Source of the DNA: a virus | Lineage: Duplodnaviria; Heunggongvirae; Uroviricota; Caudoviricetes | Strand: one strand, 5' to 3' | IMG/VR virus record: IMGVR_UViG_2711768069_000016 | DNA: 9,153 nucleotides | In this document: positions 1 through 7,892 of the stretch, one piece after another | How positions within the stretch are numbered: the stretch's first letter is position 1 | Layout of the letters: each line of letters opens with the position of its first letter | The notes under the pieces: model-generated | Told to the model about the DNA's origin: nothing | What the model saw: only the letters and a program-made list of their open reading frames with translations | Database searches by the model: none | Position numbers and translations under genes: made by a program

Positions 1-142
1 CGGCTGGGACGGAAGTCGCTGTCGTTCTCAAAATCGGTGGAGCTGCATGACAAAGTCATCGGGCATTATCTGAACATAAAACACTATCAATAAGTTGGAG
101 TCATTACCGGGGTTGAAGATGGCTGGATGTCTAAAATAAACA

Positions 143-3045: not shown

Positions 3046-3225
3046 TTGCTATGGGTGGTTAATCATGCGTTAATGGTGTTCTGGTTTGTTACAAATTTAT
3101 CTGAAGCAGTCATTGTTATAATTTTATTATTTGTACCTCTTGAGATTTCCTTGTTGGTTTTTCTCTCTGATATTTTTTTTCGGACCATTCTGCCCAAGGG
3201 CTAATTTCTTCAAAAGGTAATAATT
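3046..3225 (+). promoter_or_regulatory. cspI promoter and long 5'UTR
   Basis: -35 TTGCTA (3046-3051), 17-nt spacer, -10 GTTAAT (3069-3074), in the same tgcgttaatg context as the cspB promoter. Upstream-box-like GCCCAAGGGCTAA (3192-3204); SD AAAGG 3213-3217. Downstream box ATGTCTAACAAAATGACTGG parallels cspB. Confidence 0.5.
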
Positions 3226-3438
3226 ATGTCTAACAAAATGACTGGTTTAGTGAAATGGTTTAACCCTGAAAAAGGTTTTGGTTTCATCACGCCGAAAGAT
3301 GGCAGCAAAGATGTGTTTGTCCATTTCTCAGCAATTCAGAGCAACGATTTCAAAACATTAACTGAGAATCAGGAAGTTGAATTTGGTATTGAGAACGGAC
3401 CTAAAGGTCCTGCCGCTGTTCATGTAGTGGCGCTTTGA
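3226..3438 (+). CDS. cspI: Cold-shock protein, CspA family (70 aa)
   Basis: [70 protein letters not shown] with RNP1/RNP2 motifs; matches my recollection of CspI. Confidence 0.93.
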
Positions 3439-3526
3439 GGTAGACAATATTACAAACCATATTCACTTTAGATGCCCGTGTTGTCATGGTTCCCAGTATA
3501 GAACATCATCTTTTGATGTTTCTGAC

Positions 3527-4285: not shown

Positions 4286-4311
4286 TGTATTCAATAATAA
4301 AATTTATCCAT

Positions 4312-4337
4312 AAACCTCGTTTTTACGGGGTTTTGTT
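4312..4337 (+). terminator. Probable rho-independent terminator downstream of gnsB
   Basis: AAACCTCG (4312-4319) - ttttta - CGGGGTTT (4326-4333), 8-bp stem with one G-U pair, followed by a T-rich tract (ttttgttatattt). Confidence 0.5.
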
Positions 4338-4436
4338 ATATTTGAATGGTTCCGAATATCTAAATCACAATTGTTGATGGTTTTTATTAAACCAATGCAG
4401 TCCGGCTCAGGAGTGAGAGAAGCCGGACGTTATGGT

Positions 4437-4847
4437 TTAGCGTGGTAAGATCTGTGTAGTTTTCTGGATGCTTTCAGTAAATAGTAATGAATTATCAAAG
4501 GTATAGTAATATCTTTTTTGTTCGTGGATATTTGTAACCCACCGAAAAACTCCTGCTTTAGCAAGGTTTCTTCTGTATTCCTGAAATGTGATCTCTCTGG
4601 ATTTCAGCTTATTAGAGGTCGTTTCTATAAGATGCCTATCCTTTGAAAATTTGACAGACACAATGTTTTTTAGGCCCTTTAATAACACTGTATTATCATT
4701 TTTTAATACAATATGAACATTCTCTGTGGCTAAATAGTAAATGTAATGTGAGACATTGTGACGTTTTAGCTCAGAATAAAACCATTGATAGTTTAAATCG
4801 TTTCGAACTTTATCAAATATTTGTTTAAAAATGACTACCTGATCCAT
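4437..4847 (-). CDS. ydfO: YdfO-family protein (DUF1398), 136 aa
   Basis: Track ORF 4437..4862. I favour the second ATG (4847-4845) because GAAGG lies 7 nt upstream of it; the first ATG (4862) has none. Product [38 protein letters not shown]... matches my recollection of YdfO. Confidence 0.85.
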
Positions 4848-4904
4848 AGATAAACCTTCCATGTGATATGAGGGGGCGTAGTCTGCACGATTATCTAAAT
4901 TGCT

Positions 4905-5138
4905 TCAATCTGGTCTGACCTGTTTTCTGAGCAATTCAGTAATGTCACTCTTTTCTTTGTTTGCTTCAGAAGAAACTCTTTTTTCTGAGCACAGTCTCCG
5001 GCGGCAGGCTTCAATGACCCAGGCTGAGAAATTCCCGGACCCTTTTTGCTCAAGAGCGATGTTAATTTGTTCAATCATTTGGTTAGGAAAGCGGATGTTG
5101 CGGGTTGTTGTTCTGCGGGTTCTGTTCTTCGTTGACAT
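4905..5138 (-). CDS. ynfO: Small basic ribbon-helix-helix (CopG/Arc-like) DNA-binding protein (77 aa)
   Basis: GGGG SD 8 nt upstream of ATG 5138-5136. Basic N-terminus (TKNRTRRTTTR), then beta-strand RNIRFP, helix NQMIEQINIALEQKG, turn SGNF, helix SAWVIEACRRRL: the RHH pattern. Lies immediately upstream of ydfO on the same strand. The symbol is from recalled Qin gene order. Confidence 0.65.
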   Translation of the reverse strand: MSTKNRTRRTTTRNIRFPNQMIEQINIALEQKGSGNFSAWVIEACRRRLCSEKRVSSEANKEKSDITELLRKQVRPD

Positions 5139-5299
5139 GAGGTTGCCCCGTATTCAGTGTCGCTGATTTGTATTGTCTGAAGTTGTTTTTACGTTAAGTT
5201 GATGCAGATCAATTAATACGATACCTGCGTCATAATTGATTATTTGACGTGGTTTGATGGCCTCCACGCACGTTGTGATATGTAGATGATAATCATTAT

Positions 5300-5526
5300 C
5301 ACTTTACGGGTCCTTTCCGGTGATCCGACAGGTTACGGGGCGGCGACCTCGCGGGTTTTCGCTATTTATGAAAATTTTCCGGTTTAAGGTGTTTCCGTTC
5401 TTCTTCGTCGTAACTTAATGTTTTTATTTAAAATACCCCCTGAAAAGAAAGGAAACGACAGGTGCTGAAAGCGGGCTTTTTGGCCTTTGTCGTTTCCTTT
5501 CTCTGTTTTTGTCCGTGGAATGAACA
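5300..5526. other. Lambda-type cos site: cosQ/cosN cohesive-end sequence plus cosB with three Nu1-binding R sites
   Basis: ...GATCCGACAGGTTACG / GGGCGGCGACCT CGCGGG... matches the lambda right-end/left-end junction; the 12-nt cohesive-end sequence is 5338-5349. R3-like GTTTCCGTTCTT 5391-5402 (+), R2-like AGAAAGGAAACG 5446-5457 (inverted), R1 CGTTTCCTTTCT 5491-5502 (+), with an AT-rich IHF-like tract between R3 and R2. The ~200 bp upstream (5139-5337) matches what I recall of the lambda right end. Confidence 0.85.
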
Positions 5527-5784
5527 ATGGAAGTCAACAAAAAGCAGCTGGCTGACATTTTCGGTGCGAGTATCCGTACCATTCAGAACTGGCAGGAACA
5601 GGGAATGCCCGTTCTGCGAGGCGGTGGCAAGGGTAATGAGGTGCTTTATGATTCTGCCGCCGTCATAAAATGGTATGCCGAAAGGGATGCTGAAATTGAG
5701 AACGAAAAGCTGCGCCGGGAAGTTGAAGAACTGCGGCAGGCCAGCGAGACAGATCTCCAGCCACCCGCGCTACGGCATGGGTAA
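5527..5784 (+). pseudogene. nohQ: Terminase small subunit (lambda Nu1) N-terminal remnant, truncated after ~77 codons
   Basis: MEVNKKQLADIFGASIRTIQNWQEQGMPVLRGGGKGNEVLYDSAAVIKWYAERDAEIENEKLRREVEELRQAS... matches the lambda Nu1 N-terminus (winged-HTH cosB-binding domain). Similarity stops near 5763; the frame then reads PALRHG and stops. The rest of Nu1 and gene A are absent. Confidence 0.85.
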
Positions 5785-7042
5785 ACGTCTTGGTGCGGCA
5801 GATGTGGATAAATGGGCGCTGTATGTCATCGGCCAGTGTTGCGACCAGTCGGTGCCGGACGGTTTTGGCGGCACGGAGCCGCGCATCACCTGTAATGCCT
5901 GGCTGACCACACAGCGTAAGGCGTGGGATGTTCTCAGTGATTTCTGCTCGGCGATGCGCTGTATGCCGGTATGGAACGGGCAGACGCTGACGTTCGTGCA
6001 GGACCGACCATCAGATAAGGTGTGGACCTATAACCGCAGTAATGTGGTGATGCCGGATGATGGCGCGCCGTTCCGCTACAGCTTCAGCGCCCTGAAGGAC
6101 CGCCATAATGCCGTTGAGGTGAACTGGATTGACCCGGATAACGGCTGGGAGACGGCGACAGAGCTTGTGGAGGACACGCAGGCCATTGCCCGTTACGGTC
6201 GTAACGTCACGAAGATGGATGCCTTTGGCTGTACCAGGCGGGGGCAGGCGCACCGAGCCGGGCTGTGGCTGATTAAAACGGAACTGCTGGAAACGCAGAC
6301 CGTGGACTTCAGCGTGGGTGCCGAAGGGCTTCGCCATGTACCAGGTGATGTCATTGAAATCTGTGATGATGACTATGCGGGGATCAGCATCGGCGGGCGC
6401 GTGCTGGCGGTGAACAGCCAGACGCGGACACTGACGCTCGACCGTGAAATCACGCTGCCATCCTCCGGCACCACGCTGATAAGCCTGGTTGACGGGCAGG
6501 GTAATCCGGTGAGCGTGGAGGTCCAGTCCGTCACCGACGGCGTGAAGGTGAAAGTGAGCCGGGTTCCTGACGGCGTTGCCGAGTACAGCGTGTGGGGGCT
6601 GAAGCTGCCGACGCTGCGTCAGCGCCTGTTCCGCTGTGTGAGTATCCGTGAGAACGATGACGGTACGTATGCCATCACTGCCGTGCAGCATGTACCGGAG
6701 AAAGAAGCCATCGTGGATAACGGGGCGCACTTTGACGGTGACCAGAGCGGCACGGTGAATGGTGTCACGCCGCCAGCAGTTCAGCACCTGACCGCAGAAG
6801 TCACCGCAGACAGCGGGGAATACCAGGTGCTGGCGCGCTGGGACACGCCGAAGGTGGTGAAGGGGGTGAGCTTTATGCTTCGCCTGACCGTGGCAGCGGA
6901 CGACGGCAGTGAGCGGTTGGTCAGCACGGCCCGGACGACGGAAACCACATATCGCTTCACGCAGCTGGCGCTGGGAAATTACAGGCTGACAGTCCGGGCG
7001 GTAAATGCATGGGGACAGCCGGTGCACATACCCATTCGATGA
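5764..7042 (+). pseudogene. Internal fragment of a lambda J-like tail-tip/host-specificity protein (~420 codons), lacking its N- and C-termini
   Basis: Frame reads ...YGMGKRLGAADVDKWALYVIGQ...[14 protein letters not shown], which I recognise as collinear with the central part of lambda J. The ATG at 5675 in the ORF track lies in the Nu1 region in another frame and is probably not a real start. J similarity ends at about 7018, then 8 codons to a stop. Confidence 0.8.
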
Positions 7043-7317
7043 CATTTGTTTCAGGTGGTTCCAGTGGTGCTCCGGGAAGTGGATCACCTGATTATTCTAA
7101 ATACAGTGTTAACACTTCTTCTGCAGGCGCTCATACGCACTCTGTATCGGGTACTGCTGCAAGCGCAGGTGCACACGCACATACTGTCGGTATTGGTGCT
7201 CATACGCACTCCGTTGCGATTGGTTCACATGGACATACCATCACCGTTAACGCTGCTGGTAACGCGGAAAACACCGTCAAAAACATCGCATTTAACTATA
7301 TTGTGAGGCTTGCGTAA
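7009..7317 (+). pseudogene. stfQ: Side-tail-fibre C-terminal fragment with His-rich GAHTHS repeats
   Basis: ...[65 protein letters not shown]: repeated HxH motifs and a C-terminal end typical of lambdoid Stf proteins. Out of frame with the J fragment. Stop TAA overlaps the tfa ATG (TAATG at 7315-7319). In-frame ATGs at 7009 and 7039 could still allow a short product. Confidence 0.75.
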
Positions 7318-7892
7318 TGGCATTCAGAATGAGTGAACAACCACGGACCATAAAAATTTATAATCTGCTGGCCGGAACTAATGAATTTATTGGTGAAGGT
7401 GACGCATATATTCCGCCTCATACAGGTCTGCCAGCAAACAGTACCGATATTGCACCGCCAGATATTCCGGCAGGCTTCGTGGCTGTTTTCAACAGTGATG
7501 AGGCATCGTGGCATCTCGTTGAAGATCATCGGGGTAAAACGGTTTATGACGTGGCTTCCGGCGACGCGTTATTTATTTCTGAACTCGGTCCGTTACCGGA
7601 AAATGTTACCTGGTTATCGCCGGGAGGGGAATATCAGAAGTGGAACGGCACAGCCTGGGTGAAGGATACGGAAGCAGAAAAACTGTTCCGGATCCGGGAG
7701 GCGGAAGAAACAAAAAACAGCCTGATGCAGATAGCCAGTGAGCATATAGCGCCGCTTCAGGATGCTGTGGATCTGGAGATCGCAACGGAGGAAGAAACCT
7801 TGTTGCTGGAAGCCTGGAAAAAGTATCGGGTGTTGCTGAACCGTGTTGATACATCAACTGCACCGGATATTGAATGGCCAGCACTGCCGTAG
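7317..7892 (+). CDS. tfaQ: Tail-fibre assembly protein (Tfa family), 191 aa
   Basis: [78 protein letters not shown]... is characteristic of lambdoid Tfa chaperones. Start coupled to the stf fragment stop. Confidence 0.92.

Follow-up and report, generated by a model that had tools for sequence, protein, structure and literature searches.

The region from 5,300 to 5,784 of the window, which is the whole 9,153-nucleotide stretch analysed here, contains a lambda-type cos site next to a truncated small-terminase gene. We consider it most likely, with a probability of about 85%, that this is the cos, together with the 5' part of the small-terminase gene, of the Qin cryptic prophage located at ydfJ of a non-K-12 E. 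coli, and that its present layout results from neutral, stepwise deletional decay. The cos and the Nu1 stump constitute an ordinary, already annotated remnant and not a new system. The cos and Nu1 homologues of Qin and DLP12 (nohA and nohD) belong to standard annotation and carry little weight as a discovery. The useful result is that public genomes contain the same prophage in graded states, ranging from an operon with all morphogenetic genes to alleles without cos, which documents stepwise, microhomology-mediated prophage decay.

The Nu1 remnant in the Qin late region

The window corresponds to the late region of a Qin prophage at ydfJ and is collinear with the Qin prophages of K-12 and BL12 at 99% identity. 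The gene order cspB, essQ, ydfR, rrrQ, rzpQ, cspI, gnsB, ydfO, ynfO, cos is also that of the Qin prophages in K-12 and NCTC10973. Left of cos, ynfO (YlcI/YnfO family; 4905-5138, minus strand) is the last prophage gene still intact; it matches Pfam DUF3950 with E = 2.7e-21 and carries the name ynfO in RefSeq. To the right of cos, the same Qin order continues with fragments of Nu1, J and stf followed by tfaQ, pinQ and ydfK, adjoining ydfJ. The J fragment (5764-7019, plus strand) is an internal piece of the tail-tip gene that corresponds to lambda 16347-17608 (92.6% identity by blastn; Pfam Phage-tail_3 and Ig_J), and its reading frame after 5763 differs from that of Nu1. The C-terminal remnant of the side tail fibre and then an intact tfaQ (7317-7892) occupy positions 7020-7892 on the plus strand. 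In the PGAP annotation of NCTC10973 the truncated genes are labelled "terminase small subunit, incomplete, missing C-terminus", "host specificity protein J, incomplete" and "tail fiber protein, incomplete". The Nu1 stump is already a pseudogene in RefSeq.

The left end of the window (1-108) is 100% identical to an IS1 end in BL12, indicating that the strain of origin has an IS1 approximately 230 bp upstream of cspB. No IS is annotated upstream of cspB in NCTC10973. Rfam matches to the cspA thermoregulator are located at 178-570 and 3080-3465, overlapping cspB and cspI and the DNA upstream of each, and a match to the family IS009 lies inside tfaQ (7660-7858). There is no Rfam match to a structured RNA within 5300-5784.

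The Nu1 remnant is an open reading frame of 85 codons (5527-5784, plus strand). It is composed of Nu1 codons 1-79 (5527-5763), followed by six foreign, out-of-frame codons and a TAA stop at 5782-5784. Its Nu1 part differs from lambda by a single substitution, A75T, residues 1-74 being identical. The product matches the lambda gpNu1 DNA-binding domain (PDB 1J9I) over residues 1-68 and the N-terminal TerS fragment of the RppC complex (6HN7_B) over residues 1-83, and covers profile positions 1-81 of 164 in Pfam Phage_Nu1 (PF07471). The recognition helix (residues 17-24) and the wing (residues 31-39) are the same as in lambda (domain limits from PMC9026076). The central oligomerisation domain and the C-terminal TerL-binding domain are missing together with Nu1 residues 80-181, and gene A is absent as a part of the 15.9 kb lost relative to BL12. 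With these parts missing, the locus cannot package itself.

The original prediction, made from the sequence alone, placed the cut in Nu1 after approximately 77 codons and proposed that the winged helix-turn-helix is kept. The domain is indeed present, but the count is 79 codons, including the A75T substitution. That the terminase-assembly part and gene A are gone, as also predicted, is borne out by the alignment, the Pfam coverage and the comparison with BL12, and the predicted inability of the locus to package itself follows from these missing parts.

No promoter-like site was found between ynfO and the open reading frame. The single match to the promoter consensus lies inside the frame, and the total is no higher than in shuffled sequence. 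A promoter of its own was rejected for the stump, as there is no upstream match, and we infer that the 85-codon frame is a pseudogene lacking one. The frame does retain the ribosome-binding site of lambda and an undamaged domain, which we count against decay as the only explanation.

Deletion junctions and the Qin allele series

The Qin prophage of BL12, also located at ydfJ, contains the complete operon: nohA, A, W, portal, protease, D, E, FI, FII, tail genes, J, lom, stf, tfaQ and pinQ. This prophage (NZ_CP079780.1, 666-702 kb) has an apparently complete head and tail operon but frameshifted ydfR and rzpQ, and serves here as the reference for an undeleted ancestor. The window equals BL12 minus 15,917 bp, with CCA at the junction, and minus 4,834 bp, with CAGC at the junction. 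At the Nu1::J junction (5761-5763), lambda bp 427 is joined to lambda bp 16347 at the 3-bp microhomology CCA. The J::stf junction (7016-7019) contains the 4-bp microhomology CAGC, at which the 4,834 bp present in BL12 were removed.

A single primary 15.9-kb deletion, independent of other alleles, was our initial reading of the truncation and had to be revised. On both sides of the junction (window 5000-5763 and 5761-7700), FDAARGOS_1337 matches the window at 100% identity, and it contains 478 additional bp in which Nu1 bp 428-699 are followed directly by J bp 16135-16346. This comparison indicates that the truncation in the window is a second, nested 478-bp deletion within an older fusion of Nu1 (bp 699) to J (bp 16135). 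In the proposed order of events, an ancestor with a complete lambda-like head and tail operon would first have lost approximately 15.4 kb between Nu1 bp 699 and J bp 16135, which were thereby joined, and would also have lost the 4.8 kb between J and stf. The 478-bp deletion at the CCA microhomology within the Nu1::J fusion would then have left Nu1 codons 1-79.

Qin of FDAARGOS_1337 and DLP12 of E. coli C, which occupy different chromosomal sites, have an identical Nu1(699)::J(16135) junction sequence, suggesting transfer by recombination between prophages. The J fragment (window 5761-7019) is 94.4% identical to BL12; its flanks are 99.0-99.3% identical. These identities suggest that the fragment is a mosaic J allele.

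The left deletion ends of Qin alleles from other genomes are given here in lambda coordinates. In LR-46, the left end lies at lambda -115, cosQ and cosN are absent, and ynfO and tfaQ are kept. GF31 (left end +148) retains cosQ, cosN, R3 and R2 but has lost R1 and the whole of Nu1, with a portal fragment joined instead. Both were found with a chimeric query for alleles that have ynfO near tfaQ. The window follows with a left end at 427 and Nu1 codons 1-79, and then FDAARGOS_1337 with the Nu1::J fusion at 699. FORC064 (703) has a nohA frame of 181 codons, in which Nu1 up to lambda bp 703 is fused to the J fragment. In K-12 (719) the product is the 189-aa NohA fused to stfQ, in Z226-5 (~730) Nu1 is joined to tfaQ, and P13-6 (956) has Nu1 and part of A. 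A further allele, with a partial A gene joined to tfa, is present in EC556 and related pig isolates. Every junction examined contains a microhomology of 2-10 bp. The left breakpoints are spread across cos and Nu1, and some of them destroy cos.

The junction of the window was found in 26 genomes as single-piece matches with 99.9-100% identity over 2.1 kb. That these 26 genomes are nearly identical indicates a recent allele that has spread clonally. Searches at a coverage of at least 80% gave 64 and 69 genomes, which include the DLP12 Nu1::J loci of E. coli B/C type strains as well as other alleles; we rejected these counts as a frequency of the allele since other loci and alleles are included. 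Among the inspected genomes, an unsystematic sample confounded by clonality, alleles that retain cos far outnumber those without it. The retention of cos in three alleles was at first read as a sign of selection, and this argument was dropped once cos proved to be absent from LR-46, and R1 and Nu1 from GF31.

Across the alleles compared there is no convergence on a layout of cos plus the DNA-binding domain only. This layout is one stage of neutral decay and is incidental. The cos shows no sign of being kept; it survives because it is a 200-bp target just left of the breakpoints and because the allele is young. Four of the left ends (699, 703, 719 and ~730) fall within approximately 30 bp at the 3' end of Nu1 and the start of A, and at least three of them look independent. 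This clustering may be due to chance or to a local hotspot.

The cos site

A lambda-type cos spans positions 5308-5503 of the window. In a megablast search against lambda, 625 bp are aligned at 98.7% identity (E = 0). An alignment was made of window 4900-5900, K-12 Qin and the lambda genome (NC_001416) with its right end connected to its left. Positions 5002-5389 correspond to lambda -336 to +52 and contain no differences. The cosQ heptamer GGGTCCT (5308-5314, plus strand) is the same as at lambda 48473-48479 and lies approximately 30 bp left of the nick site. It is the signal for packaging termination (PMC4669245). The 12-nt cohesive end of cosN, GGGCGGCGACCT (5338-5349, plus strand), is the same as lambda bp 1-12 including its flanks, which places the nicks at 5337/5338 on the top strand and at 5349/5350 on the bottom strand. 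The spacer I2 between cosN and R3 (5350-5386, plus strand; lambda bp 13-49) is unchanged in sequence and length. There are no indels between lambda -336 and approximately +136, so that the distance between cosN and R3, which is critical for function (PMC4669245; PMC9026076), is preserved.

The R core CGTTTCCNTTCT has exactly three matches in the 9.2-kb window, allowing one mismatch in R3, compared with 0.17 expected by chance. R3 (5387-5402, core 5390-5401, plus strand) corresponds to lambda bp 50-65 and carries the mismatch, reading TGTTTCC. The core of R2 (5445-5460, core 5446-5457, minus strand), which is inverted relative to R3 and R1, is an exact match, as is that of R1 (5488-5503, core 5491-5502, plus strand). 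The order and orientation of the sites are as in lambda. The interval between R3 and R2 (5403-5444), which contains the IHF site in lambda, was assigned to the I1 region by alignment position. It has the length found in lambda and two substitutions (bp 73 and 102) that are common to viable phages; the IHF site is placed by position only.

Five differences from lambda are observed in cosB: C to T at bp 53, A to G at bp 73, T to C at bp 102, the loss of one base near bp 137 and C to T at bp 151. The change at bp 53 (window 5390) replaces the C with which the R3 core CGTTTCC begins. TerS contacts R3 at bp 55-63, and mutations at bp 56, 58 and 59 affect packaging (PMC4669245; PMC9026076). The change at bp 53 falls outside the contact segment, and T56, C58 and C59 are retained. 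For comparison, we aligned the cos regions of ten lambda-like phages, all deposited as isolated phage genomes. T53 is carried by 2H10, phiSTEC1575-Stx2k, Stx1_112808 and PhiR29_1, and T151 by 2H10, phiSTEC1575-Stx2k and PhiR26_1, while G73 and C102 are the majority state among the compared cos sequences. Near bp 137, lambda is the outlier with one extra base, and all 12 other sequences are one base shorter. The R2-R1 spacing in the window is accordingly 1 bp less than in lambda, as in every other phage compared. The cosB of the window differs from that of phage 2H10 by one base, and each of the five differences occurs in phages deposited as isolated genomes.

The cos is intact by every sequence criterion applied. 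The predicted cohesive end and three R sites in lambda-like spacing and orientation are confirmed by the alignment and the core search, with the reservation that R3, although present, is not identical to that of lambda. The alignment was also inspected for mutations at positions known to abolish function; none was found, R3 bp 56, 58 and 59 and the cosN-R3 spacing being unchanged.

Cutting in trans and alternative explanations

Terminase initiates at cosN and cosB, remains attached at the cosB end and moves towards Nu1, and termination of packaging requires a downstream cosQ-cosN (PMC4669245; PMC9026076). The rightward path from this cos leaves the prophage body behind, runs through the J and stf fragments, tfaQ, pinQ and ydfK and then enters host DNA. 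The host genes on this path are ydfJ, dcp, marR, marA, marB, marC, lsr, hipBA and the ydeQ-ydeT fimbrial genes. NCTC10973, which carries this allele, has only one matching place in its genome, and no second cosN is present within 50 kb downstream.

Judging from the sequence, it is plausible that the terminase of a co-resident or infecting phage with lambda specificity cuts this cos. Lambda packaging has no headful termination. Particles of the docL type reportedly start at cos, enter host DNA, and are tail-less and non-infectious unless trimmed. Given these particles, the single cos and the lack of a downstream cosQ-cosN within 50 kb, the expected product in trans is an abortive particle that never terminates packaging and not a transducing phage. 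The original prediction that the locus could be cut and packaged in trans thus divides into two parts: cutting remains plausible, but packaging would run into host DNA without a second cos within 50 kb. The likely result would be a double-strand break made by terminase, leading to recombination with the phage and to abortive rightward packaging of host DNA. We infer that recombination promoted by the break is a more likely consequence than packaging. An intact chromosomal cos is of practical relevance as a likely point of breakage and recombination during growth of a lambda-type phage in the same cell.

DLP12 provides a precedent for an infecting phage interacting with the cos of a cryptic prophage: its recombinants with lambda are concentrated at cos, half of their junctions adjoin it, and a break made by terminase has been proposed as the cause (PMC3945230). 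Lambda, K-12 Qin and the window show no differences from one another in the 336 bp left of cosN or in the first 52 bp on the other side. In the next 370 bp (5390-5763), approximately 10 differences are found between the window and K-12 Qin alleles. This asymmetry may reflect cos-stimulated recombination to the left of cos, as described for DLP12 (PMC3945230).

The cosB differences and the geometry of the locus bear on two alternatives to neutral decay. One is that the R3 bp 53 and R2-R1 changes abolish terminase recognition, leaving the cos as a fossil. R3 is the most critical R site, bp 53 lies within the nominal 16-bp element at bp 50-65 (PMC9026076), and K-12 Qin has another change at the adjacent bp 54. 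Four phages deposited as isolated genomes nevertheless have T53, and PhiR42_1 has A54; the contacted bp 55-63 and the packaging-affecting bp 56, 58 and 59 are all unchanged, and the R2-R1 difference of 1 bp is the state of every compared phage but lambda. As every cosB difference occurs in isolated phages and the critical positions are unchanged, a cos killed by the R3 change was ruled out as a working explanation, and we give it the smallest chance of the readings considered. The opposite possibility, that the cos is under selection as a packaging start which exploits a helper, so that the adjacent chromosome (ydfJ, mar, lsr and hipBA) is transferred in a cos-phage analogue of lateral transduction, is very unlikely. 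It would fit an intact sequence with a cosB one base from that of the viable phage 2H10, the retention of cos in most of the Qin alleles seen, and the use of a chromosomal cos in trans by helpers of matching specificity, at approximately 0.7-2 particles per cell in passive-prophage assays (PMC4669245). These assays, however, require a second cos in the same orientation, which is lacking within 50 kb downstream in NCTC10973 with its one matching place. Host-DNA particles are also said, from work on docL, to be tail-less and non-infectious unless trimmed, and alleles without cos (LR-46) or without half of cosB (GF31) persist.

A further alternative concerns the stump. An expressed 85-residue product might act as an anti-phage factor, either by occupying R3, R2 and R1 of an incoming phage or by heterodimerising with full-length TerS, via the interface at which the DNA-binding domains dimerise, and poisoning terminase assembly. 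The whole ordered domain is present, with the recognition helix and wing as in lambda, and N-terminal TerS fragments are soluble dimers (PMC6739421). A precedent is Rpp of satellite islands, whose TerS-like winged-helix domain pairs with the DNA-binding domain of TerS and thereby prevents the packaging of lambda (PMC6739421). A heterodimer of the stump and TerS, in contrast to that of Rpp and TerS, would have a normal DNA-binding surface. The truncation is a random nested deletion in the Nu1::J fusion, and the frame has no promoter-like site upstream and lies behind the convergent ydfO and ynfO. Sister alleles have a full-length, a longer or no Nu1, and do not converge on a DNA-binding-domain stump. 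The isolated Nu1 DNA-binding domain is also said to bind DNA weakly. We regard this function as very unlikely. The suggestion in the original prediction that the Nu1 fragment sits on cosB and interferes with the terminase of a superinfecting phage likewise finds no support in the analysis. The chance is equally slight for the more general view that decaying lambdoid prophages keep a working cos, with or without a TerS stump, because it pays as a cheap decoy defence or as a trap for phage recombination. If this were true, an infecting phage of lambda specificity would cut the host chromosome, and its terminase and proheads would be diverted to dead-end packaging; alternatively, the stump would pair with the incoming TerS. 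Neutral decay of a Qin prophage is the reading we prefer over all of these.

One of the most similar known systems is the cos and nohA (b1548) region of K-12 Qin. It belongs to the same prophage, with the same ydfJ insertion and flanking genes, is 99.3% identical over window 4295-5763, and has cosQ, cosN, R3, R2 and R1 all present. In K-12, Nu1 extends to lambda bp 719, is fused to stfQ in the 189-aa NohA and is not followed by a J fragment, whereas the window has 79 codons and a J fragment. The R3 variants also differ, with A54 in K-12 Qin and T53 in the window. DLP12 (cos and nohD) similarly has a lambda-type cos and a Nu1 homologue beside lysis genes and has lost its head and tail genes, and in E. 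coli C it contains the Nu1(699)::J(16135) fusion from which the allele of the window is derived. Its nu1 functions in lambda (PMC3945230). Unlike the window, DLP12 is located near appY and ompT, shows approximately 95-97% identity and has a full-length or nearly full-length Nu1. Lambda itself shares an identical cosQ-cosN-I2, the same cosB architecture and Nu1 residues 1-74, while the window has five small cosB differences, which are natural polymorphisms, and lacks Nu1 residues 80-181 and gene A.

Phage-inducible islands of the cos type with Rpp (PICIs) resemble the locus in having a chromosomal cos without their own terminase, which only a helper can package. The winged-helix, TerS-like domain of the stump could in principle pair with a helper TerS, as in Rpp. 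In contrast to these islands, the cos of the window has the specificity of the helper (lambda) and is not redirected, and the body of the element lies upstream of cos and would not be packaged. PICI modules (integrase/excision, helper-induced replication and Rpp) are found neither in the window nor in the annotation of the 25-kb context in NCTC10973. The packaging of passive prophages by a helper, and lambda docL particles, share with the locus a chromosomal cos on which the terminase of a helper with matching specificity can act in trans. Helper packaging of the chromosomal DNA between two cos is an established assay (PMC4669245). Productive packaging needs two cos in direct orientation at a packageable distance, whereas the locus has a single cos.

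Modules of lambda-type cos and Nu1 are close to ubiquitous in E. coli. A query from ydfO to Nu1 is matched by 4,700 of 5,426 complete genomes, 2,446 of them over at least 80% of its length. In many E. coli genomes the homology to the window ends at 5378-5382 (lambda bp 41-45), consistent with the conserved cosQ-cosN-I2 segment giving way there to a cosB-Nu1 module that has another packaging specificity.
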